In this document: piece after piece, positions 6,651-47,452 of the stretch
Layout: the number at the start of each line of letters is the position of its first letter
How positions within the stretch are numbered: position 1 is the stretch's first letter
Assembly (NCBI GenBank): GCA_965220745.1
Contig: CBDCQT010000012.1
Span: 480,001-544,000, forward strand
Length of the DNA: 64,000 nucleotides
Reading direction: 5' to 3'
Source of the DNA: Alphaproteobacteria bacterium
Lineage (GTDB): Bacteria > Pseudomonadota > Alphaproteobacteria > UBA828
Translations under genes and position numbers: made by a program
The notes under the pieces: model-generated
Told to the model about the DNA's origin: nothing
What the model saw: the letters and a program-made list of their open reading frames with translations, nothing else
Database searches by the model: none

Positions 6651-6779
6651 TTGAAAGTCCTCGTCATCATCCTCTTGCTCATCATCGGCGGCGGAATCGG
6701 ATTTCTTTTGACCTGGGATATCCCCCCGCCGCCCGGTCCGGTCGAAAAGGTGCTGTCCAATGATCGCTTCGAGAAGTGA
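6651..6779 (+). CDS. Small (42 aa) single-TM membrane protein, absent from the ORF track
   Basis: TTG start; [42 protein letters not shown]; AGGAG upstream at 6631; stop overlaps the next start (GTGA). Confidence 0.75.
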
Positions 6780-8677
6780 GAGCACCCCCGGTTAGTCGGA
6801 TGTTCCGACTGCCTCTTCGCCGCTCGCGAGTTGGCCGAAAGCCATGGTCCGCGCTTGTCGGCGCATTTCTTCCGGCTGTTCTGCTGCTGATCGCATCCGC
6901 GGGTGAAGGCATCGCTCAGGATTCCGATGAGCCGTTGCGGCTGATCCCGCAGCAGCAGAGCGAGGACGTCGACGAGAGCGGCTCGGAGCCGGGCGAGGAC
7001 GAAGGCGCGTCCCCGAACATCGATTCGGTCGTGGGCGCAGAGGGTACCGCCGCGACCGCTTCGGCCGCTCCCGCATCGGCCGAAGGCGGCATCCGTGTGG
7101 GCGCGCTCGAGGCCATCGATCCTGATGCGGCTGGCATTCCGGTCGAGGGACTCGAGCCGTTTCCTGGCGATCTCTGGTCGGGCTCGCGTCGCTCAAGGAT
7201 CGAAGCCTTGCTGCCGCGCCTGCCCGTCGCGGCGCCTTCCTTCACCATGCGGCGACTCGCGTTGGGGTTGCTCACCTCGCCGTCGCAACCGCCTGCTGGT
7301 GAGGGCGAGGCCGGTGCACTCGCCCTCGTGCGGGCCGAGCGCCTGGTGGCCATGGGTGCGCGCGACGCTGCTCTTGCGCTGCTGGAGAGTGCCGGTCCGG
7401 CCGGGGGTCAGAGTCTCACCGCCCGGATCGAGAACGACCGCCTTCTCGCTGCGTTCGACCTCGACACCGCTTGCGCGCAAATCCTCGGCAAGGCAGGGCG
7501 GGCCGGCGATGGTTATTGGCGCCGCGTGCGCATCCTGTGTCAGGCGCACGCCGGCATGATTGAGGCCGCAACGCTCGGCCTGGAGCTGCTGCTGGAAACC
7601 GATACCGCGTCCGATCAGGTGTTCGACGACACGATCTATGCCATGGCGGGGTTGGCCGAGCCTGTCGTGGATTCGATGGCCGATCCGACTCCCCTGCGCG
7701 TCGCCGCCTGGCGGCTTGCGCAGCTCCCGATCCCGGTGGAAGCGGTGGGGAGAGCAGCGCCCGATGTGCTGCCGGCGATTGTCGTCGCGCCGGAATCCCT
7801 GCCGGGGGCACGGCTGCTGGCGGCGGAGCGCGCGGAGGCGACCGGCACACTCCCCATTGAAGCCCTTCGCGATCTCTATCGAACCATGTCGTTCTCGTCG
7901 GAGGAGCGCGCCGATGCCCTGGCGCAGGTCGAATCGCTGGAACCGCCGCTCGGCCGCGCCTTGATGCTCCAGGCGATCGAGACAGAGACGGCGCCTGCGC
8001 TCAGGGCGGAGCTGCTGGCGGAGGCACTCTTTCTTGCCGAGGCTCAAGGGGCTCACGGAACTGCGGCGCGAGCGTTCGCGCATCTGGTGGGCACGGTGCC
8101 GCCAGCGCCCGCGCACGTCTGGTTCGGCGCGGCGGCCGGGCGAGCTCTCATTGCGGCCGGCGAGCTCGATGCGGCTGCACGCTGGTACGCACTGGCCACG
8201 GACCATGGCTCGCGCAACCCCGAAGCGTTGCGCGCCTCGTTGCGGCTCTGGCCGTTGATGCTTCTGAGCGGCGATGACGATCATCTGACCAAGGCCAAGT
8301 TCGACGCGTGGCTTTCTCTGCGGGCCGACGAGGGCGGGCGGACCGTCGCGGTCGCGCGGGCGAACTGGCTGGCGATTCTGGTCGATGCGCTCGGAGGCCG
8401 CGTAGACCCGCAGGTCTGGGATCGCCTGTTGCTCGACGAGCCACCTGTGGCAGCGCGGGGGCCGGCGCTGGCGCTGGCGAACGGACTGCTGAAGGCGGCC
8501 GAGGGCGGGCAGCTCGGCGAAACCGTCCTGTTGGCGCTGCTGCTGCTCGGCGACGCCGGCCCCGCCGCTGCAGGCATCGCGACCGTCGGGCCCGTGGTCT
8601 CCAGCCTCGTTTCTGCCGACCTGCAGGAGGAGGCGCGGGCGATCGCCCTGGAAGCGGCGCTCGCGGCGGGGCTTTGA
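6776..8677 (+). CDS. Exported alanine-rich helical hypothetical protein upstream of xerD
   Basis: 633-aa ORF with signal-like segment, acidic linker and DLWSGS motif; translationally coupled on both sides. Start uncertain. Confidence 0.75.
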   Translation: MRAPPVSRMFRLPLRRSRVGRKPWSALVGAFLPAVLLLIASAGEGIAQDSDEPLRLIPQQQSEDVDESGSEPGEDEGASPNIDSVVGAEGTAATASAAPASAEGGIRVGALEAIDPDAAGIPVEGLEPFPGDLWSGSRRSRIEALLPRLPVAAPSFTMRRLALGLLTSPSQPPAGEGEAGALALVRAERLVAMGARDAALALLESAGPAGGQSLTARIENDRLLAAFDLDTACAQILGKAGRAGDGYWRRVRILCQAHAGMIEAATLGLELLLETDTASDQVFDDTIYAMAGLAEPVVDSMADPTPLRVAAWRLAQLPIPVEAVGRAAPDVLPAIVVAPESLPGARLLAAERAEATGTLPIEALRDLYRTMSFSSEERADALAQVESLEPPLGRALMLQAIETETAPALRAELLAEALFLAEAQGAHGTAARAFAHLVGTVPPAPAHVWFGAAAGRALIAAGELDAAARWYALATDHGSRNPEALRASLRLWPLMLLSGDDDHLTKAKFDAWLSLRADEGGRTVAVARANWLAILVDALGGRVDPQVWDRLLLDEPPVAARGPALALANGLLKAAEGGQLGETVLLALLLLGDAGPAAAGIATVGPVVSSLVSADLQEEARAIALEAALAAGL

Positions 8678-9672
8678 CGCGTCGTAGGCGGCCACGGACG
8701 GCCGAAGCCGCGCTCCGCGAGGGCGACGCGGCCGCCATCGAGGCGTTTCTCGAAATGGTTGCCGCAGAGCGCGGGCTCGCCCGCAATTCGATCGACGCCT
8801 ACCGGCGGGACCTCGCCTGTTTTGCCGCCTATCTCGCGCCGTCGCGTATGGCCCTGGTTGAGGCCGACTCCGCGTCGATCCGGGGGTTCGTGGCGGAACA
8901 ACGCCGCTCCGGCGTTGCGGCGCGCACCGCGGCGCGTCGGCTCTCCTGCCTGCGCCAGTTCTATCGGTTCCTGTTGACCGACGGCCGGCGTGACGACGAT
9001 CCCACTGCGACGGTGGATTCGCCAGTGCTCCCTCGCACGCTCCCCGGCGTGCTCAGCGAAGAGGAGGTCGAGAGGCTGCTGGCGGCAGCGTGGCCCGAGG
9101 ACGATGCGGCGAAGATGTCGCCCAGGCGCGAGGCCGACGGGCTTCGCCTGCGGGCCATGATCGAGCTGCTTTACGGCAGCGGTCTCCGTGTTTCGGAGCT
9201 GGTGTCGCTGCCGCTCCACGCGATCTCCGCCGAGACGCAGAGCCTGTTGGTGCGGGGCAAGGGCGACAAGGAACGCCTGGTTCCGCTCGGGGCGCCAGCC
9301 CGCCGGGCGCTCGACGCCTATCTCGCGGTGCGCGATCGTCACCTGGCGAACGGAGCGCCGTCCCGCTGGCTGTTCCCCTCGCGCGGCGCGAGCGGTCACC
9401 TGACGCGGCATCGACTTGCGCAGATGCTCAAGGCGCTGGCGCAGGCGGCGGGGATCGAGCCGAGCCGGGTCTCGCCCCACGCGCTGCGCCATGCCTTCGC
9501 CAGCCATCTGCTCGCCAACGGGGCGGACCTGAGGGCGGTGCAGAAGATGCTCGGCCACGCCGACATCGCGACAACGGAAATCTACACCCATGTCCTCGAC
9601 GAGCGGCTCAAGCGGCTGGTCGAGGCCGGGCATCCCCTCGCCGCCGCCGGCCGCGCGCGCTCGGGCGGCTAA
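8674..9672 (+). CDS. xerD: Site-specific tyrosine recombinase XerD
   Basis: ERGLARNSIDAYRRDL, GLRVSEL, GKGDKER, SPHALRHAFASHLL, LGHADIATTEIYTHV; TTG start overlaps the previous stop. Confidence 0.93.
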   Translation: MTRRRRPRTAEAALREGDAAAIEAFLEMVAAERGLARNSIDAYRRDLACFAAYLAPSRMALVEADSASIRGFVAEQRRSGVAARTAARRLSCLRQFYRFLLTDGRRDDDPTATVDSPVLPRTLPGVLSEEEVERLLAAAWPEDDAAKMSPRREADGLRLRAMIELLYGSGLRVSELVSLPLHAISAETQSLLVRGKGDKERLVPLGAPARRALDAYLAVRDRHLANGAPSRWLFPSRGASGHLTRHRLAQMLKALAQAAGIEPSRVSPHALRHAFASHLLANGADLRAVQKMLGHADIATTEIYTHVLDERLKRLVEAGHPLAAAGRARSGG

Positions 9673-12584: not shown

Positions 12585-14459
12585 TCACCCGGCCGCGCTG
12601 CGGGGCGCGGCGGCGAGGGCGTCTCGCGCCGAATCCTCTTCGCGCCCGTCGTCGAACTGGAGCGCCGCGAGCCTCGCGTAGAGCCCGCCGCGCGCCATCA
12701 GCGCCCGGTGCGTCCCCTCGGCGACCACGCGGCCCTCGTCCATCACCACGATGCGGTCCGCCTTCTGCACGGTGGCGAGGCGATGCGCGATGACGATGGT
12801 GGTCCGCCCCGCCATCAGCCGCTCCAGCGCCGCCTGCACCGCGCGCTCGCTCTCGGCGTCCAGCGCGCTAGTGGCCTCGTCGAGCAGCAGCACCGCCGGG
12901 TTGCGCAGCACGGCGCGGGCGATCGCGAGCCGCTGCTTCTGCCCGCCCGAGAGCCGGGTGCCCTTCTCGCCGAGGAAGGTATCAAAACCCTCCGGCAGGC
13001 TGTCGAGGAAGGCCGCCGCGCCCGCCGCCTCCGCCGCGGCGCGGACCTCCTCGTCGCTCGCCTCGGGCCGGCCGAAGCGGATGTTCTCCCGCGCGCTCGT
13101 CGCAAACATCACCGCATCCTGCGGTACCAGCGCGAAGGAGCGCCGCACCGCCTCCAGCGAGGCCTCCCGCAGGTCGACCCCGTCGAGCACGACGCGCCCG
13201 TCCTCGGGGTCGTAGAAGCGCAGCAGGAGGTTGAAGACGGTCGACTTGCCCGCGCCCGAGGGACCCACCAGGGCGACCGTCTCGCCCGGCGCAACGGCCA
13301 GCGAGAAGCCCTCCAGCGCCGGCGCGTCCGGCCGAGCGGGGTAGTGGAAGGTGGCGCGGTCCAGCTTCACGGCGCCCTGCTGCGGCTCCAGCAGCGGCTT
13401 CGTCACCGCAGGCGCGGGCGCGAGCGCGGGCTCCTCGTTGAGCAGCTCGGCCAGCCGCTCAGCGGCACCGGCGGCGTGCTGCAGGTCGCCGTAAACCTCG
13501 CTGAGCGAGCCCACCGAGCCCGCGACCACCACGGCGTAGAACATGAAGGCGGTCATCTCGCCGCCGGTCATCTCGCCCTGCAGCACCGTGGTGCCGGCGA
13601 TCCAGAGCACGAGGCCCACGCCGCAGAAGACCAGCAGGATGACGATCGCCGTCAGCGTCGCCCGTGCCTGCACGCGCCGCAGCGCCGCGCGGAACGCCGC
13701 CTCCACGTGGTCGCCGAAGCGCTCGCCGCTCCGCTCCTCCTGGCCGAAGGCCTGCACGGTGCGGATGCCGCCGAGCGCTTCCTCCATGTGCCCGCCGACA
13801 TCGCCCACGCGGTCCTGGGCGAGGCGGGAGAAGCGCCGCACGCGCCGGCCGAGCACGACGATGGGGATCACCACCACGGGCACCATCAGCACCACGAAGC
13901 CGGTGAGCGTCGGGCTCGTCACGATAAGCATGGCACTGGCCCCGAGGAACAGCAGCAGGTTGCGCAGCGCCGACGACGCCTGCTGGCCGATCACGGTCTG
14001 CAGCAGGGTGGTGTCGGTGGTGATGCGCGACAGCAGCTCCCCCACCTTGTTGATCTCGAAGAAGGCCGGGCTCAGCCCCACAAGGCGGCGGAAGACTGCC
14101 CGCCTTATGTCGGCCACCACCCGCTCGCCGAGCCAGGAGACGAGGTAGAAGCGCGCAAACGAGCCGCCCGCCAGCAGCGCCACCATGCCCGCCATGTAGA
14201 TCAGCGCATGGTGGAGCCGCGAGATCTCCTCCGCGCTGAGGCCGTCGTCGATCAGGACCCGGAGCCCCTGGCCCATCGCGAGCACCGCCGCGGCGCTGAC
14301 GCAGAGCGCGAAGACCGCCGCCACGATCACTCCGCGGTAGGGCCGGAGGAAGCGGAACAGGTAGCGGATACGGCGGATCTCGCCACGCGGCGGCAGGGCT
14401 GACGACGCCGGCGAATCGCCGGAGCGCCGCCGCCTCGCTTCCGATCCGAAGATGCTCAC
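12585..14459 (-). CDS. ABC exporter, fused permease/ATPase (MsbA-like family)
   Basis: N-terminal TM domain, [32 protein letters not shown]. Confidence 0.93.
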
Positions 14460-14575
14460 CGCTGCCGCCCCCCGTTCTGGTGGCGGCACGATATCCGAGT
14501 CGCGGCGGAGCCAATAGCCGCTTGCGCCGGGCGCGCCGCGTCTATATGAAAGCCGCGCGACAAGCGGGGCCCGCC

Positions 14576-14800
14576 ATGAAGAAAGACATTCATCCCGATT
14601 ACCACGAGATCACCGTCGTCCGGACCGACGGCAGCACCTTTACCACGCGGTCCACGTGGGGCAAGGCGGGCGACACGCTCACCCTCGATATCGACCCGCT
14701 GTCGCACCCGGTGTGGACAGGTGGGGCCCAGCGCATCGTCGACCGCGGCGGCCAGGTCTCGCGCTTCAACAAGCGCTTCGGCGACTTCGGGCTGAACTAA
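14576..14800 (+). CDS. rpmE: 50S ribosomal protein L31 (Cys-less form)
   Basis: [10 protein letters not shown]...HPVWTG...RFNKRF. Confidence 0.97.
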
Positions 14801-14864
14801 GTCTCGCACGCGCGAAGCGTGGTGCGCGCGAAACCAAGAGCCGCGCACGCCTAACTTCCCCAAC

Positions 14865-14894
14865 CGTCATGGCCGGACTCGTTCCGGCCAACCA
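14865..14894 (+). repeat. CGTC-type REP palindrome (family R2)
   Basis: CGTCATGGCCGGA-CTCGT-TCCGGCCA; related copies near 18427, 18952, 34212, 34276 and 35850. Confidence 0.8.
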
Positions 14895-14990
14895 TGTCCT
14901 GCTCGTCTGAGGCCCGTGTTCCGAAGGGTCATGTACCCAAGAGCGGCCTCGTGTCTCGTCGGCCCGGTGGGATTATCCCAAATGTTAATT

Positions 14991-15051
14991 TTAGGCGGCC
15001 TATTCCGGCCCACTCCGGCCCAAAGTGGCCCAAGGTGGCCCAAGGTCGCCC
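14991..15051. repeat. Array of degenerate 10-bp-period units (GGCC/CGCC core) after an AT tract
   Basis: GGCC at 14997, 15007, 15017, 15027 and 15037, CGCC at 15047. Confidence 0.75.
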
Positions 15052-15083
15052 ACGCGACAAAATTAGGGGATTATATACCGACC

Positions 15084-15113
15084 TTGACATCTGAGCGCAA
15101 TTCCCCGTAGCCT
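15084..15113 (+). promoter_or_regulatory. Putative inward-facing sigma70 promoter with -35 in the left TIR
   Basis: TTGACA (15084-15089), 18-nt spacer, TAGCCT (15108-15113); predicted start near 15120 coincides with the first base of a long stem. Confidence 0.6.
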
Positions 15114-15119
15114 CCTCCC

Positions 15120-15240
15120 TGCAACGTTACGCGGACCCGCTTGTCGGGTCGCCCGCTGAATAGAACAGCCCTTGATCCGGCCGGGGTAGCTCCCCGGCTT
15201 GGCGAATAGGCGGGGCTTCACGCTTCCGTGTGACGTTGCA
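15120..15240 (+). ncRNA. Putative structured RNA or 5' leader of unknown family inside the IS1595 element
   Basis: 16-bp closing stem TGCAACGTTACGCGGA/TCCGTGTGACGTTGCA with two G-U pairs, enclosing CCCGCTTGT/ATAGGCGGG, GCTG/CAGC and GCCGGGG-TAGCT-CCCCGGC helices. Confidence 0.55.
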
Positions 15241-15293
15241 ACGGCCCGGCGCCAGGCGCCAAGGGGCGCGGCCGGTCCACGGGAGATGGACCT

Positions 15294-16610
15294 ATGCTCA
15301 GAACATCGTTGATCGCCGTAGCGTGCGCTGCGGCCGTGATAGCGCTTGCCGCCTGCGGCGGTGGGGGCGGGGGCAGTGGTGAGCGGCCATCCGTCCACCA
15401 CGATATTGTCGGGGTCGACCAAGGCCTCGAGTCTTTTCGAGGGCTGCCGTCAGCCGGCGCGCGCGGCGGTGTGGCGATCCGCTACGGCACTCGCACTGAT
15501 GGCGTGGGTCGCGACGCCTTGGTCGCCTATCTCACCGAAGCCGGCGCCACGACAGCACGCTGGTACGACGTGCCGCCGGACATTCGGGTGATCGGCCCCT
15601 CGACGGCGCGGGAAAAGCAACTCGTGACCGAGGTCGTCGAGGCGATCAACCTATCGCTGCCGCCTGAGCACCGGATCAAGCTCAGGACGCCCGTGGCAGG
15701 GCTCAGCCTGCGCCACACGGTGAATGCCGCTGGCCGCTACTTCCGGGGGAGAGATCACCGCCCGAACACGATCCATATCGAGTTCCTCGACTGCCACGAT
15801 TACCACGACTGTGGCACCTCCGGCGCCACCGCCTGGGGCAACGGGTCCGACCTTCACGCCTACGTCCAGATGGCACGAGGAACACCCGCCTATGGCCGGG
15901 ATGATTGGGCACGCATCCTTCTGGCGCACGAGCTCCTGCACACCCTGCTTGCGGACGAGCATGTCAGCGAGCGCTTCGACTCGATCAATCTGGGCTCCAA
16001 TGCCATCTACGCGGCCGGGCCAGCCTCTATCCTCAAGCCGATCGACCGTGAAGCGCTCCAGGCGCTCTACGGGCACCTCGAACTGCACGACAGCCCAACG
16101 GCCCTCGGCCCTTGGTCGAGCACCTCGACGCATTTCATCGGTGACGGGCGCCATGCCGACTTCGGCGTTGCGCTGAGAAACGGCTACGCGGAGCCGTGGG
16201 CGCGCGGTGCCCGGCCTTCCTCCACGCTCGCGAACAACCGCGCCCTCTTGGGAACGGTCATCTGGGATGGCGCGCTGGTCGGCTTCTCGGGGCACCAATC
16301 CGTCACGGGCGATGCCTTGATCTCCGTCGACCTGACCGTGCTCGATGCTCCCTTGCCCGAGCTCGACGGCAGTGCCGTCTTCACGGCGCTCGAATACTGG
16401 CATCACCCCGAAGCCGACGATCCGTTGGGCGGCTCGATGTGGGGCGACGGCGATCTCGCCTACACGATCACCGTGGACGGCAACACCTTCCGAGAAACTG
16501 GCGGGGATGATGGTAGACTCACGGGGATCTTCACCGGCCGTTCCCATGAAGGAGCCGCCGGCACCTTGGAGCGGTCCGACCTCATCGCAGCCTTCGGCGC
16601 TTCACGCTGA
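15294..16610 (+). CDS. Passenger lipoprotein: metzincin-like HExxH domain plus C-terminal TbpB/fHbp-like beta-barrel
   Basis: Lipobox LAAC followed by poly-Gly; AHELLHTL and DREALQALYG; C-terminus GRLTGIFTGRSHEGAAGTLERSDLIAAFGASR. Confidence 0.8.
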   Translation: MLRTSLIAVACAAAVIALAACGGGGGGSGERPSVHHDIVGVDQGLESFRGLPSAGARGGVAIRYGTRTDGVGRDALVAYLTEAGATTARWYDVPPDIRVIGPSTAREKQLVTEVVEAINLSLPPEHRIKLRTPVAGLSLRHTVNAAGRYFRGRDHRPNTIHIEFLDCHDYHDCGTSGATAWGNGSDLHAYVQMARGTPAYGRDDWARILLAHELLHTLLADEHVSERFDSINLGSNAIYAAGPASILKPIDREALQALYGHLELHDSPTALGPWSSTSTHFIGDGRHADFGVALRNGYAEPWARGARPSSTLANNRALLGTVIWDGALVGFSGHQSVTGDALISVDLTVLDAPLPELDGSAVFTALEYWHHPEADDPLGGSMWGDGDLAYTITVDGNTFRETGGDDGRLTGIFTGRSHEGAAGTLERSDLIAAFGASR

Positions 16611-16627
16611 CCATCGGGAAAGAGATC

Positions 16628-16783
16628 ATGGCGAAACAGACCGGCGAGACAGACTTGCTCACCTTGGCGATGCGCCGCGCGCACGCGGAGGCGGCAGAAA
16701 GGCGGGAGCCGGAACTCCCGCCCGATACCGAAAATGCTTCAGCCGCGGATGTTGCTGACGACCAGAATGTTGCCGTCGAGTAG
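16628..16783 (+). CDS. Small acidic passenger ORF (51 aa), hypothetical
   Basis: ATG 17 nt after the lipoprotein stop with purine-rich GGGAAAGAG upstream; MAKQTGETDLLTLAMRRAHAEAAE...; not in the ORF track. Confidence 0.45.
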   Translation: MAKQTGETDLLTLAMRRAHAEAAERREPELPPDTENASAADVADDQNVAVE

Positions 16784-16957
16784 CTTGGTCTCGTTGATCA
16801 AACCGCCCAATAGTCCCCGGTGGACCGCGCCAATGACGGTGGTCTCGACCGCCTCGTGACTGGCGCCGGGGAGCTGCGCGGCAAGGTCTTCGACGGTGTT
16901 GAACTGGCGGCCTCGGCAAGCCGCAAGGACGCGCTGTAGCAGCGGTGTCTGGGACAC
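16739..16957 (-). CDS. Small passenger protein (72 aa), possible winged-helix fold
   Basis: AAGGAG 7 nt before GTG; helix-helix-helix-hairpin pattern (TVEDLAAQL, SHEAVETTVIGAVHRGLL). Confidence 0.55.
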   Translation of the reverse strand: MSQTPLLQRVLAACRGRQFNTVEDLAAQLPGASHEAVETTVIGAVHRGLLGGLINETKLLDGNILVVSNIRG

Positions 16958-17169
16958 AGAAGGTCTCCTTGATCTGGAGACCGCCTAACGCCATGCTATG
17001 GAGATTGCGTTTCAGCATGTGCCCGCAGCGGTCTCGTGAGCCATGTGCGGGTGCCGGGAGTTCCCCTGCCAGGGGGTAGGCCCGACCGTCGAGCATCATC
17101 TTAGCCGATGGTGCTCGATGTGTCTTCAGGGTAGTGGCCGCAACTTGTCGACCGTCAAGATGTAGGGGG

Positions 17170-18153
17170 TCAGGCGCTGCGTGCGCCGCTTGACAGGCCG
17201 TTGTCGGCGATCAGCGCGCTGTACGCCAGATGCTTGCCCACCATGTGCGTGACGGCGGTTTCCATCTGCTCGATGGTGTCGGCCTCGCGCACGTTGTGCC
17301 GGCCCGAGAACTCGTTGATGTACCGCTCAAGATGCTTCTGGCTCATCTTGTGGTAGGTACCGTGGTAGCCGCGCTTCAGCATCGCCCAGAAGCTCTCCAT
17401 GCCGTTGCAGTGTGCCTGTCCCCGGACATATTCGCCGGCGCTGTGGTTCACGGCCTCATGGTCGAACCATGCCGCCAGTGCGTTGTACGCCTTCGACTCG
17501 TCGGTGTAGACCGTGGCGCCGGGCTTGGTCCGCTCCGCGACGAAGCCCGCGACATGGGGAGTGTCGGTACCGGCGACGTGGCGAGCGGCGACCTTGTTGC
17601 TCTCGCGATCCTTGGTCCCAACGACTGCGGCCTTGCCGACCGCTCCCCGGCCCGTCAGCTTCACCCGCTTGCTCTTGGGCATGTTCTTCCGCCTGCCGCC
17701 GATATAGACCTCATCGGCCTCCACGGGCCCGGAAAACGGCGCCGCACCGTTGTCGTCCCACGCTTCCCGCAGGCGATGCAGCATGAACCAGGCCGTCTTC
17801 TGGGTCACCTTCAGGTCGCGATGCAGCTTCATGCTGCTCACACCCTTCAGGTTGGTGACGTAGAGGTAGACCGCGAACACCCACTTGCGCAGCGGCAGGC
17901 GGGAGCTTTGCAGCATGGAGCCGGTGCGGACGGAGAAGTAGGACCGGCACGACTTGCACCAGTAGGGCATCGGCTTCGCGTTCGGCACTTCCTTCGTCTC
18001 GGTCGATCCGCAATGGCCGCAGTGGCGCTCGCCGTCCGGCCAGCGCGTATCCTCAAACCACTTCACTGCCGAGGCTTCGTCGGGGAACATCTCGGTCAGT
18101 TCGATGATCGAAATGCCTTCGCGGTGGGCTTTTCCAGGTGCTTTGCGGGTCAT
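17170..18153 (-). CDS. IS1595-family DDE transposase
   Basis: Zn ribbon CGHC...CKSC, KTAWFMLHRLR, EADEVYIGG, YTDE, NGMESFW, YINEFSGRHN. Confidence 0.96.
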   Translation of the reverse strand: MTRKAPGKAHREGISIIELTEMFPDEASAVKWFEDTRWPDGERHCGHCGSTETKEVPNAKPMPYWCKSCRSYFSVRTGSMLQSSRLPLRKWVFAVYLYVTNLKGVSSMKLHRDLKVTQKTAWFMLHRLREAWDDNGAAPFSGPVEADEVYIGGRRKNMPKSKRVKLTGRGAVGKAAVVGTKDRESNKVAARHVAGTDTPHVAGFVAERTKPGATVYTDESKAYNALAAWFDHEAVNHSAGEYVRGQAHCNGMESFWAMLKRGYHGTYHKMSQKHLERYINEFSGRHNVREADTIEQMETAVTHMVGKHLAYSALIADNGLSSGARSA

Positions 18154-18178
18154 TTCTCGTCTCCCCCTTACACCTTGG

Positions 18179-18207
18179 AATATAGGCACTTACCCCTCGA
18201 TTGTCAA
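18179..18207 (-). promoter_or_regulatory. Transposase promoter with -35 in the right TIR
   Basis: Minus strand TTGACA, 17-nt spacer, TATATT, then AAGGGGGAG before the ATG at 18153. Confidence 0.75.
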
Positions 18208-18262
18208 GGTCGGTATATAATCCCCCAAAATTATCGCAACCACGGAAGCAGAGGCCCGCCCG

Positions 18263-18396
18263 CCCATCGATCTTGCTTGCCGTGACCCGCTCGCTCTCGC
18301 ACTGCGTCGCGCGGATACGCGCGCGGGAAAATAATCGAACCATCTCGCGATCCTGACGCAGTCACCGCGCCCTGTGCACCGCACCATGGTCCGGGG
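18263..18396. repeat. 134-bp repeat family R3, copy 1
   Basis: Ungapped match to 34062-34195 (18 mismatches by manual count). Confidence 0.88.
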
Positions 18397-18426
18397 AGTC
18401 GGGAGGGGAGGAGTCCCACCATGTCT

Positions 18427-18451
18427 TGCCCGGACCAAGTCCGGCACGACG
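18427..18451 (-). repeat. Degenerate CGTC-type REP (R2)
   Basis: TGCCCGGAC-CAA-GTCCGGCACGACG. Confidence 0.65.
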
Positions 18452-18494
18452 GCATGTGACAGCGATGGAATGGAGAGAGCGCCCCGGCTCTTCC

Positions 18495-18743
18495 CTAAAT
18501 GCAGTCAAAGTGGAAATGTTTGATGGTGCAGGCCTCGTCCTTGCATTGGACCTTGGTGGGCTGCGCGACCTTGCCGTGAACTGCGCATCCCCTCTCGGCT
18601 GCGCTCCACACCCTTTGCTCTTGGGTCAAGTAACCCGCCTTTATGACGATGTTGCCGCTGTCGAGGTGTTCGACGACCGACGCGAACTGAGCGCAACCGG
18701 CAACGGCCAAGGCGACGATCCCGACAACCAGCAGGCGTCTCAT
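18495..18743 (-). CDS. Small Cys-rich lipoprotein (82 aa), hypothetical
   Basis: Signal peptide with lipobox VAGC; four further Cys; GGGAGG RBS; TATAAT on the minus strand at 18856-18861. Confidence 0.8.
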   Translation of the reverse strand: MRRLLVVGIVALAVAGCAQFASVVEHLDSGNIVIKAGYLTQEQRVWSAAERGCAVHGKVAQPTKVQCKDEACTIKHFHFDCI

Positions 18744-35951: not shown

Positions 35952-37210
35952 CATTGCTGTCCGGTTTAGCTTGGGTAGACAAGGTGCATGGCTTGGATTC
36001 AACTTGGTTTTTGCAAGACCTGTTGAATCGAAGCTCGCAATGGAGCCCAAGCCATGCCCTACCAGGATACGATTTTCGGCGGACTGATGAAGGCGTTTCC
36101 GCGCTGGCGCTTCGACAAGCTGGCAGAGCGCCACGGAGCGGACTACCGGGTCCGGCGCCTTTCGTCGTGGAGCCAGTTCCAGGCGATGGTGTTCGCCCAG
36201 CTGTCGGGCTCGCGCTCGTTGCGCGAGGCGGTCGGTGCGCTGGAACGCTTTCCGGGCGTCCATGCCCATCTGGGTCTGGCGCCGGTGCGGCGGTCTACGC
36301 TCGCGGATGCCAACCGGGTACGTCCGGCGGCCCTGTTCGAGGACGTACTCGAGGCCCTGGTCGCCCGGCTGGGCGCATCTGCGGGCCAGCGCGGGCGGGA
36401 GATGCTGCGCCTCGTCGATGCGACCCGGGTCCTGGTTGGCAAGCGGATCGAGAGCTGGGAGGTCGACGGTGCCGTCAAGCTGCACGTGGTCTACGACCCG
36501 GACGCAGATGCGCCCGTTTGCTTTGCCGTGACCTCGGCCAGGGTCAACGACATCACGCCGGCCAAGCGCCTCCCCATCGAGCCCGGCGCGACTTACGTCT
36601 TCGACAAGGGCTATTACGACTTCGCCTTCTGGGCAGACATCGACGCCAAGGGGAGCCGCTTCGTCACCCGGCTGAAGAAGAACTCGCCCACAAGCCTGAT
36701 CGAGACCCGCCCGGTCAAGCCGGACGGCCCGGTCGTGGCCGACCGCGTCGCCTTGCTGTCGAAGCGCCTGGCGGCGAGCCGCCAGAACCCCTTCGACAAG
36801 CCGGTGCGTCTGGTCACCGTGCGCATCGACAGCGGCAGGGAGATCATGCTGGTCAGCAACGACCTCAATGCCCCAGCCGAAGAGATCGCGGCGCTCTACA
36901 AGCGGCGCTGGCAGGTCGAGCTGTTCTTCAAGTGGATCAAGCAGAACCTGAAGATCCGGCACTTCCTCGGCACCAGCGAGAATGCCGTGCGCATCCAGAT
37001 CGTCACCGCGCTGATCGCCTACCTGCTGCTGCGGCTGGCGCAGATCGGAACCGGAACCCGGCTCGGCCTCCAGGCCATCGCCCGCCTCGTCGCCAAGACG
37101 ACCTTCCAGCGCCGGGCGCTCACCGACCTCTTCGAACCGCCGCCCGATGAGCCACAAACCCATGACCAACTCCAAATCCCCTTCGCCAAAATCTAAACCG
37201 GACAGCAATG
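35952..37210 (+). mobile_element. IS4-family insertion sequence, 1,259 bp
   Basis: 18-bp perfect TIRs CATTGCTGTCCGGTTTAG and CTAAACCGGACAGCAATG; 9-bp direct repeat GGTCAAGCC (35943-35951 and 37211-37219). Confidence 0.95.
36054..37196 (+). CDS. IS4-family transposase
   Basis: RSTLADAN, VDAT, VFDKGY, YKRRWQVELFFKWIKQ (YREK motif). Confidence 0.96.
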   Translation: MPYQDTIFGGLMKAFPRWRFDKLAERHGADYRVRRLSSWSQFQAMVFAQLSGSRSLREAVGALERFPGVHAHLGLAPVRRSTLADANRVRPAALFEDVLEALVARLGASAGQRGREMLRLVDATRVLVGKRIESWEVDGAVKLHVVYDPDADAPVCFAVTSARVNDITPAKRLPIEPGATYVFDKGYYDFAFWADIDAKGSRFVTRLKKNSPTSLIETRPVKPDGPVVADRVALLSKRLAASRQNPFDKPVRLVTVRIDSGREIMLVSNDLNAPAEEIAALYKRRWQVELFFKWIKQNLKIRHFLGTSENAVRIQIVTALIAYLLLRLAQIGTGTRLGLQAIARLVAKTTFQRRALTDLFEPPPDEPQTHDQLQIPFAKI

Positions 37211-45313: not shown

Positions 45314-47452
45314 ATGACCGTATCCACCAAGAAATACCTTGCCGCGTTCGCAGCGACCGCAGTGCTCGCGCTGGGGCTATACGGTTGCGGCGGCGGTGGA
45401 GGAAGCGGTCCGACGACTGGGACCGAAACTATGATGCCGGACGACGGCGAGACGATGATGCCTGACGACGGCGAGATGATGATGCCGGACGACAGCGACG
45501 GCATGATGATGGGTCCCGGTGACCGCGATCCGATCGATCTTTCCCAATTTCTACTTCCTGCTACCGAGCAAGGCATCGCACCTGGAATGATTGCTGCAAT
45601 AATCGATGAAGAAGGCGTAAAGGCGATCGGAGCCGCCGGACTTCGCAGGCAAGGATCGCCCGAGATGATCACAGTTGATGACCTCGTTCATATTGGATCT
45701 GATACCAAGGCCATGACGTCGACAATGCTGGCGACGTTGGTGGAGGACGGAATCTTTAGTAGTGGTTGGGATACGACAATCGCGGATGTCTTTCCCGAGC
45801 TTATTGGCACGATCCATCAAGGCTACCACACTGTTACACTCTCTCAACTCGTAAGGATGCGCGGCGGCATTTCTCGTAATGCCGCAGATTGGTGGGCGCA
45901 TTCAAGCAATCCTGATATTGTGGGAATGCGCTACGAGTTACTCAAGGATAATTTAGCCATCCCGCCTGCTGGGGCCGTGGGAGACGACCTCTATTCGAAC
46001 CTTTCATATATGGTTGCGGGCGCAATGGCCGAGCGCCTTACGGGAAAAAGCTGGGAAACATTGATGCAGGAGCGTTTGTTCACACCCTTGGGCATTACCA
46101 ACGCCGGGTTTGGTCCTCCAGGTACGCCAGGTTCTGTCGATCAACCGTGGGGTCATGCGCCCCGTGGCCGGAGCGATTGGGCGCCCAACCAGTATGATAA
46201 CAATCCGGCTCTGGGGCCTGCCGGCACGGTCCATATTTCAATCGAGGACTGGGCTAAATTCATTTCGCTTTGGTTTACAAATAAGGAGCCCGCTATTCTT
46301 AGCCGAAGCATTTTGAATGAGCTCAGCACGCCGGAATCAGGGGAATATGCAGCAGGGTGGTATGTGGCCCAACGAAATTGGGCAGGCGGAACAGTGCTCA
46401 ATCATGATGGCTCCAACACCTATTGGTACGCGACACTATGGATTGCGCCACAGCGGAGCGTAGCATTCGTGGCGGTTGCCAACTCGTCCGACCTTATTGA
46501 AGACCGTGGGGTGTACTTGGCGCTCGATTCGATCATCTCCAGTCTTATTGTCGATGATTCGTTGTCGCGCGGTGCGGGTATCGGTGGAAGTGGACAAGAG
46601 GAGGCCTCACAGAGGCAATGGCTCTTGAACCCGACCAGCGTCCGCTCCGTGACCGGCGCCCAGGCGCCCGACTTTTCCAGCGAAGATGTCGGCACAAGTG
46701 TAAGCCAGCTGAGGGCAGCGGCAAATGCCCTGCTCGCGAGTGACCTTTTGATGTTTGCCGGTAATGGCGTTGCCGTTCGCGGCCAGACCACATGTCTCAA
46801 CGACGAATGTTCGTCGAATTTAGCGGAGACTGCGCTGACGCTCACAGTGTCCGGAGTCGAATTCGGCAATCAGTCTCTCGATTACCAGGCCGTTGCGAGC
46901 CATCGCGGCGCGTCCTTGGCCGAAGGTCGGGGCGAAACGTCGATCGCTGGCACGTCGATAGACTACAATGCATATGGTGGCTGGCTGCAACACAGCTTCT
47001 TCGTAATCGAGGCTGGCAAAGTCGCCGAAGGTCTCCTCGAAGGCACGCCCATCATCTACAGCTATTCGGTTGGCGACGCACCAGACACAAATCCGGCAGC
47101 GGTAGACGGAAGCGGCAGGTGGAGGGGCGTCATGGTCGGTGCTGACGTCGGCCAGACCGCAACACGTGGCAACCTGATCCAGGGCAATGCGGAGATCACG
47201 ATTGCGGACTTCGCTGATCCGCAGGTTGACGTCGCGTTCACTCAAATCTTTGATTTGGAAACCGAAATCCAGCGCAGCGATATGAATTGGGTCGGCATCC
47301 AAGTAACGGCAGGCGGATTCGCCTCCGGCACTGACGGTAACTCGATCGAGGGTCGGTTCTACAGCCCGAACCACCAGGAGGTCGGGGGAATTTTCGAGCG
47401 AGATCAAGTTCTCGGAGCCTTCGGCGGCGCGCGCTCTTCGAGCGACCAGTGA
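45314..47452 (+). CDS. Lipoprotein: serine hydrolase (beta-lactamase family) domain plus C-terminal TbpB/fHbp-like barrel
   Basis: Lipobox LYGC with poly-Gly; SDTK (SxxK), YSN, HDGS; C-terminus IEGRFYSPNHQEVGGIFERDQVLGAFGGAR; GGGAGG RBS; visibly lower GC than its neighbours. Confidence 0.85.
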   Translation: MTVSTKKYLAAFAATAVLALGLYGCGGGGGSGPTTGTETMMPDDGETMMPDDGEMMMPDDSDGMMMGPGDRDPIDLSQFLLPATEQGIAPGMIAAIIDEEGVKAIGAAGLRRQGSPEMITVDDLVHIGSDTKAMTSTMLATLVEDGIFSSGWDTTIADVFPELIGTIHQGYHTVTLSQLVRMRGGISRNAADWWAHSSNPDIVGMRYELLKDNLAIPPAGAVGDDLYSNLSYMVAGAMAERLTGKSWETLMQERLFTPLGITNAGFGPPGTPGSVDQPWGHAPRGRSDWAPNQYDNNPALGPAGTVHISIEDWAKFISLWFTNKEPAILSRSILNELSTPESGEYAAGWYVAQRNWAGGTVLNHDGSNTYWYATLWIAPQRSVAFVAVANSSDLIEDRGVYLALDSIISSLIVDDSLSRGAGIGGSGQEEASQRQWLLNPTSVRSVTGAQAPDFSSEDVGTSVSQLRAAANALLASDLLMFAGNGVAVRGQTTCLNDECSSNLAETALTLTVSGVEFGNQSLDYQAVASHRGASLAEGRGETSIAGTSIDYNAYGGWLQHSFFVIEAGKVAEGLLEGTPIIYSYSVGDAPDTNPAAVDGSGRWRGVMVGADVGQTATRGNLIQGNAEITIADFADPQVDVAFTQIFDLETEIQRSDMNWVGIQVTAGGFASGTDGNSIEGRFYSPNHQEVGGIFERDQVLGAFGGARSSSDQ
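45431..45502 (+). repeat. Intragenic 24-bp tandem repeat, three copies (MMPDDGET-like)
   Basis: ATGATGCCGGACGACGGCGAGACG / ATGATGCCTGACGACGGCGAGATG / ATGATGCCGGACGACAGCGACGGC. Confidence 0.9.

Follow-up and report, generated by a model that had tools for sequence, protein, structure and literature searches.

An IS1595-family element carrying a lipoprotein gene with a predicted metzincin head, a TbpB/NHBA-type barrel and a structured RNA leader

Insertion sequences (IS) are usually viewed as transposase-only elements. Siguier, Gagnevin and Chandler are said to have described, in 2009, elements of the IS1595 family that have passenger genes. A second point of comparison is offered by NHBA, TbpB, LbpB, HpuA, HphA and hemophilin, all of which we take to be substrates of Slam and the type XI secretion system (T11SS), displayed on the surface or secreted. 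Here we describe an IS1595-family element in a stretch of 64,000 nucleotides from an Alphaproteobacteria genome (contig CBDCQT010000012.1; this whole stretch is referred to as the window). Its passenger, which we call the cargo gene, encodes a lipoprotein with a predicted protease head and a C-terminal barrel of the TbpB/NHBA type, and is preceded by a structured RNA leader.

An intact element of the IS1595 family, 3,160 bp long, occupies positions 15058-18233 of the window together with its target-site duplication. The element itself (15066-18225) begins with the 24-bp terminal inverted repeat GGGGATTATATACCGACCTTGACA (left inverted repeat, IRL; 15066-15089, plus strand) and ends with its perfect complement, matching at 24/24 positions (right inverted repeat, IRR; 18202-18225, minus strand), both read directly from the letters. 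Two directly repeated copies of the octamer CAAAATTA, identical at 8/8 positions, flank it at 15058-15065 and 18226-18233. When up to three mismatches were allowed, the 24-mer end occurred twice in the window, at IRL and IRR only, and 0/100 shuffles contained two or more matches (mean 0.00). The element ends, GGGGATTAT, fit GGnnATTAT, the end consensus of the ISNwi1 group, to which the element may belong. These data indicate a complete element, and its insertion is probably recent.

The transposase gene lies at the right end (17170-18153, minus strand) and encodes an IS1595-family DDE transposase of 327 aa, counted from its ATG, with a putative N-terminal zinc ribbon. The protein matches PF12762 (DDE_Tnp_IS1595; E = 2.6e-40) and NCBIfam NF033547 (E = 8.4e-58). 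The match of the zinc ribbon to PF12760 (2.1e-5, 24.9 bits) falls just below the 25.4 cut-off; the CxxC...CxxC pattern is visible, and close transposase relatives bear a precomputed PF12760 assignment. At least 7,996 relatives were found at E ≤ 1e-30, the best at 94% identity, and nothing at least 60% identical was present in 72,556 plasmid records. A promoter-like site (18179-18207, minus strand), composed of a TTGACA within IRR, 17 nt and TATATT (11/12 matches), faces the transposase and is the sole such site in 14700-18500; an alternative GTG start at 18189 would lie upstream of it. At the opposite end, a TTGACA box resembling a -35 element (15084-15089) forms the inner end of IRL and points toward the cargo, and a TTGAC box occupies the same end position in all related elements that we delimited. 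The preliminary description of this locus had reported perfect 24-bp repeats, an 8-bp duplication and a right-end transposase, and had assigned the element to IS1595; all three features are present where it had placed them, and the family profiles agree with the assignment.

The cargo gene (15294-16610, plus strand) encodes a lipoprotein of 438 aa and is preceded by a Shine-Dalgarno-like GGGAGA at 15281-15286. Its hydrophobic N-terminus, a signal peptide with the lipobox LAAC (Cys21; 15294-15356, plus strand), reads ...VIALAAC(21)GGGGGG, so that a GGGGGG tether follows the lipobox. The motif HELLH occupies residues 212-216 (15927-15941, plus strand), and a third His lies at residue 223 (15960-15962, plus strand). 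The C-terminal end of the protein is GIFTGRSHEGAAGTLERSDLIAAFGASR. Lipobox, poly-Gly tether and HExxH had all been recognized in the preliminary description.

Single-sequence searches were insufficient to place this protein, and profiles and predicted folds were required. Among 8,000 candidates scored, 432 were relatives of the cargo at E ≤ 1e-3. The family comprises 703 clusters at 50% identity at that threshold, 235/703 of them at E ≤ 1e-30. The sources give it no functional name; the few names present are "hypothetical protein". Many family matches cover residues ~205-438 only, behind different N-termini of up to 1,992 aa. A lipobox was found within the first 70 residues of 195/266 family proteins, many of the 266 being fragments. 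A profile of the whole cargo length gave weak matches only against PDB sequences (astacin, 1.1; MJ1213, 0.24) and was abandoned for assigning the fold.

AlphaFold2 modelling of the cargo with the family alignment gave a mean predicted local distance difference test score (pLDDT) of 91.4 and a predicted template modelling score (pTM) of 0.86. The model starts with a signal helix and a disordered Gly tether, continues with an alpha/beta domain (residues 36-260), and closes with a handle and a barrel. The alpha/beta domain, which we delimit as residues ~36-262 within 15294-16610 (plus strand), was also modelled alone (pLDDT 87.0) and had 70 PDB matches at E ≤ 1e-3. Among the matches listed (ranks 1-50, further chains of entries already shown being omitted), all were metzincins, with MMP-8 first at 4.2e-5, followed by other MMPs, serralysins, adamalysin/ADAM and karilysin. 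Consistent with this, a profile of the domain matched the MMP-1 catalytic domain at 1.3e-4 over a span that includes the zinc motif and the next helix. The HExxH is borne on helix 203-218, modelled with high confidence. H212, E213 and H216 are present in 120/120 aligned relatives and H223 in 117/120. The family motif, HExxHxLGxxGH, exceeds the canonical metzincin motif by one residue; 154/266 members have this longer spacing and 56/266 the canonical one. In the window copy the motif reads HELLHTLLADEH and departs from the canonical HExxHxxGxxH, the third His being one residue farther and Leu replacing Gly. The window protein has no PF00413 (Peptidase_M10) match at E ≤ 1, and 2/120 listed homologues have that assignment precomputed. 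The predictions give us high confidence that the HExxH domain has a metzincin, MMP-like fold that keeps H212, E213, H216 and H223.

The remainder of the model, residues ~270-438 (16101-16607, plus strand), is predicted to form a handle of three strands (278-306) and a barrel of eight strands (321-437), with pLDDT mostly above 90. Foldseek returned 67 PDB matches for the whole cargo model at E ≤ 1e-3, led by the NHBA C-terminal domain (1.8e-7; target TM 0.66-0.69) and TbpB (9.5e-7). LbpB, HphA, HpuA and hemophilin followed (HpuA and HphA at up to 1e-4), and MMP-1 was matched at 1.4e-5. In the ESM Atlas the cluster nearest to the C-terminal domain is TbpB_B_D/FHBP_C (0.92; 185 shared features). 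A profile of the C-terminal domain reached NHBA at 0.03 and TbpB at 0.87 among PDB sequences, and PF01298 (TbpB_B_D) matched 33/76 C-terminal domains from related loci (E ≤ 1; best 2.3e-5), while the window cargo's own domain had no PF01298 match at E ≤ 1. On the strength of the model we assign the C-terminus with high confidence to a TbpB/NHBA-type handle and eight-stranded barrel. The TbpB-like barrel proposed earlier, which a different fold would have contradicted, is therefore upheld as a predicted NHBA/TbpB-type fold.

When the element was compared with related loci by BLASTN, the stretch upstream of the cargo gene was better conserved than the cargo gene itself. This stretch (15121-15250, plus strand; about 130 nt) corresponds to a structured leader RNA on the 5' side of the cargo gene, recognized by nhmmer, a covariance model and covariation. 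In the structure that we defined by hand, 15121-15134 pairs with 15226-15239 (P1), 15152-15157 with 15209-15214 (P2) and 15168-15170 with 15201-15203 (P3), and 15179-15199 forms a hairpin (P4); the alignment also reveals a conserved internal loop, UGAAUAGAACA / GAAUA. Across the window and 79 related loci (described below), nhmmer found 36 instances. From the window and its closest relative, locus L012, together with the hand-drawn structure, we built a covariance model that gave 29 matches at E ≤ 0.01 in 1.49 Mb. The hand structure and covariance model were used because RNAalifold on a plain MAFFT alignment, in which the variable outer stem was misaligned, recovered 9 pairs only.

In the model-fitted alignment, which inflates pairing and covariation figures, 93.1% of 856 cells were paired, compensatory double changes occurred at 30/32 pairs, and the covariation score was 0.576, compared with 0.171 in shuffled alignments (0/500 reached the observed score) and at most 0.069 with partners slid. 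Three to six different pair types occur at each position of the 14-bp outer stem P1, so that its sequence changes fully while pairing is kept. G-U cells outnumber A-C cells 86 to 12, which indicates, for an alignment fitted to the model, a fold on the sense strand. A candidate pseudoknot, GUCGGG (15143-15148) with CCCGGC (15245-15250; plus strand), has modest support: 94% of cells are paired, one pair varies as UG 14, CG 7 and UA 5, and 4-11/500 shuffles reach the observed value. In most instances CCCGGC can alternatively pair with a downstream GCYGGG as a hairpin, with no U-tract after it. Because CCCGGC takes part in both structures, a switch is possible. A local hairpin, ACCCG/CGGGU, was rejected, since it was 75.2% paired compared with 75.1% in shuffles.

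The leader is associated with genes. Directly after 20/36 nhmmer instances comes a member of the cargo family (the next open reading frame, ORF, starting at most 64 nt past the 3' end of the motif or overlapping it); before cargo-family genes about 27-64 nt separate the end of the leader from the start codon, unless it overlaps the beginning of the called ORF. A same-strand ORF starts within 600 nt downstream in 26/36 instances, mostly within about 65 nt, and none does so in 10/36. The other genes behind the leader encode one protein with RTX repeats, another with Sel1 repeats, a GT25 enzyme and small proteins with signal peptides. In the window and in L012 the left inverted repeat lies 50 nt from the start of the model and about 31 nt from the P1 stem; the other 27/29 covariance-model instances have no inverted repeat within 200 nt. 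No inverted-repeat remnant was found upstream of leaders in loci that lack a transposase; two pattern matches, at L048 and L079, do not continue as inverted repeats. Since only the window and L012 have a left end near the leader, the leader belongs to the gene module and not to the transposon. A cmscan of 14800-18400 against the 4,227 families of Rfam 15 at E ≤ 10 gave no match in the leader; three weak matches outside it were all far under gathering scores. A literature search likewise returned no matching description of such a leader RNA. The leader is thus well supported as a structured RNA, new as far as our searches reach, and its association with genes is clear.

When contigs were scanned with a profile of the family alignment, 141 places were confirmed. 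The best 80 of them were kept; they represent 79 distinct loci, every one of which is titled as a metagenome-assembled genome. By a hand count from titles, 40 are Alphaproteobacteria, 7 Gammaproteobacteria (Poriferihabitaceae included), 6 Binatia, 5 Nitrospinota, 5 Deltaproteobacteria-type, 4 Nitrospirota, 2 Chloroflexi (titled Chloroflexi or Dehalococcoidia), 1 Acidobacteria, 1 Entotheonella, 1 Porisulfidus and 7 unclassified. The cargo family is thus spread over about ten major lineages. To judge from their names, several of the host taxa may be sponge inhabitants.

A transposase related to that of the window occurs in 23/79 loci. In 10/79 the cargo-family gene itself lies between IS1595-type inverted repeats, with a convergent transposase at the right end (L012, L001-L004 and L037, L032, L018, L009 and L048). 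Five of these ten, L001-L004 and L037 (9645-12580 in each), are 100% identical copies of 2,936 bp from one assembly, and their perfect AT-rich 8-bp duplications are all different: AATTCTTT, AAAAATTA, AAGATTTT, TATTTAGT and AAAACAAT. Five identical copies with five different duplications are direct evidence that the cargo-carrying element transposes as a unit, and the set looks like a recent transposition burst. The RNA motif is absent from these five copies. Perfect 8-bp duplications also flank the elements of L032 (4,992 bp) and L018 (7,441 bp); the duplication of L009 matches at 7/8 positions, L012 abuts a second element, and L048 has no duplication. The two IS1595-type elements of L012 stand side by side, the sister element at 12734-15201. 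An architecture nearly identical to that of the window therefore recurs in other genomes, where its mobility is demonstrated. The preliminary description had left room for a one-off capture, which the ten element-borne loci and the five identical copies speak against.

Elements of the same type also carry other passengers. Sister elements with ends of the form GGGRATTAT...TTGAC, as in the window element, hold a NotI-like restriction endonuclease and a D12 methylase (L072, 11395-14203), an N6/N4 methylase and an ORF of unknown family (L056, 14943-17826), or a GT25 glycosyltransferase behind the RNA motif (L044, 2991-5403). Mobile genes in general are abundant near the cargo family; these include IS66, IS110, IS4, Mutator, ISAZ013 and DDE_3 transposases, a group II intron reverse transcriptase and a phage terminase, and an ankyrin-repeat protein is also found there (L006).

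The closest relative of the window element is the 3,161-bp element of L012. The two are 80-81% identical over the left end and leader, 11-58% over the first two-thirds of the cargo gene, 72-75% over its end, 66-77% over the region of small ORFs and 57-92% over the transposase. That the head is far less conserved than its flanks suggests either fast diversification or exchange between conserved flanks.

The reading that we favour, and regard as probable, is that of an intact IS1595 transposon with a self-contained expression module, whose lipobox-bearing protease-barrel protein is displayed on the surface through Slam and regulated by its leader. The module would consist of the inward-facing -35 box in the left end, the structured RNA leader, the lipoprotein gene and a small ORF. 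The protein would be exported by Sec, lipidated at Cys21 and transferred to the outer membrane. Where the host is a proteobacterium, the barrel at the C-terminus would then let the Slam/type XI outer-membrane protein place the lipoprotein on the cell surface, where the Gly-tethered metzincin would cleave an extracellular protein. The leader would set the level of cargo in response to a signal, with CCCGGC toggling between the GUCGGG pseudoknot and the downstream hairpin. The protease head would evolve, or be exchanged, much faster than leader, barrel and transposase.

A number of observations weigh against this reading, and most of them bear on the export route. The preliminary description had suggested searching for a Slam gene, and none was present among 79 ORFs scanned for Slam/DUF560 in the 64-kb window. 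One candidate, the 500-aa ORF 7193-8695 (minus strand), had no family match and is antisense to a likelier ORF of 633 aa at 6776-8677 (plus strand). At the related loci we scanned 104 of 169 candidate ORFs of 380-620 aa, those nearest to the cargo genes (within 3.4 kb), and a single one was Slam (1/104), in L056 only of the 79 loci. All-against-all clustering of 1,474 neighbouring ORFs revealed no recurrent Slam or TonB-receptor neighbour; the transposase was the only neighbour of the cargo family to recur apart from an antisense artefact and generic ABC proteins. The family also extends to Nitrospirota, Nitrospinota, Binatia, Chloroflexi, Acidobacteria and others, whereas DUF560 is described as proteobacterial (PMC8406197). 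A general link between such barrels and Slam is further weakened by a marine survey in which the TbpBBD domain co-occurs in just 8/145 loci of T11SS cluster 3 (PMC12282271). Three further points concern the element and its cargo more broadly. The cargo protein alone has no useful match in Pfam, NCBIfam or PDB sequences. Its cluster has one member, from one contig, and so gives no hint that the source genome has another copy. Finally, co-divergence of cargo and transposase was rejected (Mantel r = -0.14, p = 0.64; 8 element-borne pairs, all 40,320 permutations), and because their distances are uncorrelated the pairing is not an old stable unit.

The findings on export leave some room for a lipoprotein that is not displayed by Slam at all, facing the periplasm or, where there is no outer membrane, sitting outside the cytoplasmic membrane, with the barrel serving as a binding or scaffold domain. 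We consider this possible, if on the unlikely side. In its favour, besides the scarcity of adjoining Slam genes, many of the related loci are non-proteobacterial, and the Dehalococcoidia copy L022, from one of the two loci titled Chloroflexi or Dehalococcoidia, keeps both lipobox and Gly tether. However, adjacency of Slam gene and cargo is not required, and in L056 (6969-11086) the order is a barrel-ended lipoprotein of 330 aa, Slam, and a 512-aa member of the cargo family with LAGCGGGG and HELLHAYGIVAH. The Slam there (L056:7977-9416) matches PF04575 at 2.1e-15 together with TPR_Slam, and we take this layout, in which Slam is flanked by two barrel lipoproteins, to be the usual one for a T11SS locus. 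Moreover, the best structural matches of the barrel are all presumed T11SS substrates that are secreted or on the surface, and within a protein whose head varies, conservation is highest in the barrel and the C-terminal motif, as fits an export handle. Slam-mediated surface display in proteobacterial hosts is therefore plausible. Of the earlier view that the transposon is a vehicle for surface-displayed enzymes, the mobile lipoprotein-protease cargo stands, while we infer the surface display itself.

The favoured reading also treats the window copy as an active enzyme, and here two residues count against it. The motif Gly, present in 107/120 relatives, is Leu in the window copy, as in 2/120; the column that aligns, approximately and through the profile alignment to MMP-1, with the MMP Met-turn is Met in 89/120 and Asn in the window copy, as in 5/120. 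Lacking both, the window copy may be a weak or altered enzyme. A stronger version, in which it is a dead or re-purposed binding protein and the module serves adhesion or host binding, would accord with TbpB-class proteins, which we take to be binders and not enzymes. We judge it improbable, because the window copy retains all three zinc His and the catalytic Glu, which are invariant or nearly so in the 120 relatives, and the model has high confidence at the active-site helix (203-218). In addition, Met-turn substitutions in metzincins tend to reduce stability without abolishing activity. Least of all do we expect the conserved upstream stretch to be a DNA-level feature of the element, such as a binding site for transposase or host factor or a recombination site, in place of a regulatory RNA: it does start 50 nt inside the left inverted repeat in the window and L012 and has copies inside other IS1595-type elements (L012B, L044 and L011), but nearly all instances lack a nearby inverted repeat, most (26 against 10) precede a same-strand ORF, the long outer stem retains pairing through complete sequence change, and the G-U excess, in the model-fitted alignment, points to a sense-strand fold.

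Three features of the window go beyond the preliminary description: the RNA leader at 15121-15250, the small ORF orf72 at 16739-16957, and a second barrel lipoprotein at 45314-47452. This second lipoprotein (plus strand), placed by family profiles and by alignment to the cargo barrel, has the design of the cargo and lies outside any IS. It has the lipobox LYGC, five Gly, MMPDDGE-like repeats, a beta-lactamase-family serine-hydrolase domain (PF00144, 6.5e-39) and a TbpB_B_D end (2.1e-4). Its barrel is 26% identical to that of the cargo over 127 aa (E = 1e-4). The presence of a second such protein indicates that the host already makes enzyme-barrel lipoproteins, and we count it, together with L056, in favour of the proposed export route.

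The spacer of about 560 bp between cargo and transposase contains two small overlapping ORFs. The first, orf72 (16739-16957, minus strand), is a conserved ORF of 72 aa downstream of and co-directional with the transposase, and its GTG follows an AAGGAG at a distance of 7 nt. The counterpart in L012 shows 61% identity, L005 and L018 match in part, and another five homologues are 68-81% identical; all homologues seen end in IRG. A match in the ESM Atlas to the winged helix-turn-helix family DUF2582 (0.91) is a weak lead that orf72 may encode a small winged-helix protein. In L005, a locus with no transposase, a relic of orf72 lies downstream of the cargo gene. The second, orf51 (16628-16783, plus strand), is of uncertain reality; it is 63% identical over 38 aa in L012 only and has no family match in Pfam or NCBIfam.

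The insertion point is intergenic, downstream of rpmE, in a chromosome region of alphaproteobacterial type with 68% G+C, where ccm genes and the genes for pyruvate dehydrogenase and enolase are among the neighbours. The element has 64.6% G+C, compared with 69.5% and 67.3% in its flanks. Just upstream of the insertion site, GGCCCAARGT occurs three times in tandem (15017-15046), and the duplicated AT-rich octamer is flanked by short inverted GCGA and TCGC. Elsewhere in the window, an unrelated second transposase gene (DDE_Tnp_1 with DUF4372) is found at 36054-37196 (plus strand). The Ala-rich 633-aa ORF at 6776-8677 has no Pfam match and overlaps the start of ORF 8308-9672 (plus strand), a tyrosine recombinase (XerC/D-like) whose true start is probably farther downstream.

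As the five identical copies at five sites in one genome demonstrate, a small IS1595 element here moves an entire, presumably regulated gene whose product is probably a surface protease. The size of this unnamed family and its reach over some ten lineages point to a cheap route by which host-associated bacteria could gain and diversify surface enzymes, and raise the question of how TbpB-type barrels are handled outside Proteobacteria. A broader idea, which we put forward tentatively and consider rather doubtful, is that of a modular mobile "surface-enzyme cassette" that crosses phyla, made of a riboswitch-like leader, a diversifying protease head, a TbpB-type barrel and an IS1595 transposase. 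In the many hosts that are not Proteobacteria, export would use a route other than Slam, or T11SS-like machines would exist well beyond that phylum, and the leader of the cassette would represent a new class of sensor. If this were true, the leader RNA would be one dedicated to secreted and host-interaction proteins.

A literature search gave no description of this cargo class, in agreement with the preliminary description, which knew of no described example. The main text of the T11SS cargo surveys PMC12282271 and PMC8406197 does not contain the word "metallo..."; their supplements, outside the scope of that search, may list protease-type cargo.

Compared with known systems, the locus combines familiar parts in a different way. 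It resembles IS1595 passenger elements in its DDE_Tnp_IS1595 transposase, short terminal inverted repeats, 8-bp duplication and passengers between the ends; it differs in what it carries, a gene with its own RNA leader for a predicted lipoprotein protease that ends in an export-type barrel. The leader resembles riboswitch-type leaders in its multi-stem fold of about 130 nt, conserved internal loop, candidate pseudoknot and mutually exclusive downstream hairpin. However, it precedes genes for secreted or surface proteins and not for metabolic enzymes or transporters, has no Rfam match, and has no U-tract after the hairpin.

The predicted head shares the fold of karilysin (4in9) and the MMP catalytic domain (M10), with a target TM of 0.60-0.64. 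It also shares the HExxH helix, the third His, and a D-R-E-A-L-x-x-L-Y stretch aligned to D-D-x-x-G-I-Q-x-I-Y of MMPs. Unlike MMP-like metzincins, the cargo has its third His one residue farther, shows no pro-domain, is lipid-anchored and fused to a barrel, and in the window copy has neither the Gly of the motif nor the Met of the Met-turn. With the Slam/T11SS cargo TbpB, LbpB, NHBA, HpuA and HphA/hemophilin it has in common the lipobox and Gly-rich tether, the handle and eight-stranded barrel, and the end motif G-x-F-x-G...AFGA. In contrast to these proteins, the window gene is borne on a transposon, its family reaches well beyond Proteobacteria, and its own sequence lies below Pfam detection for PF01298. 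The head, too, differs, being an enzyme of the predicted metzincin type and not a binding domain. As far as our searches reach this enzyme-on-barrel design is undescribed, and its enzymatic head is an addition to the repertoire of TbpB-barrel lipoproteins.

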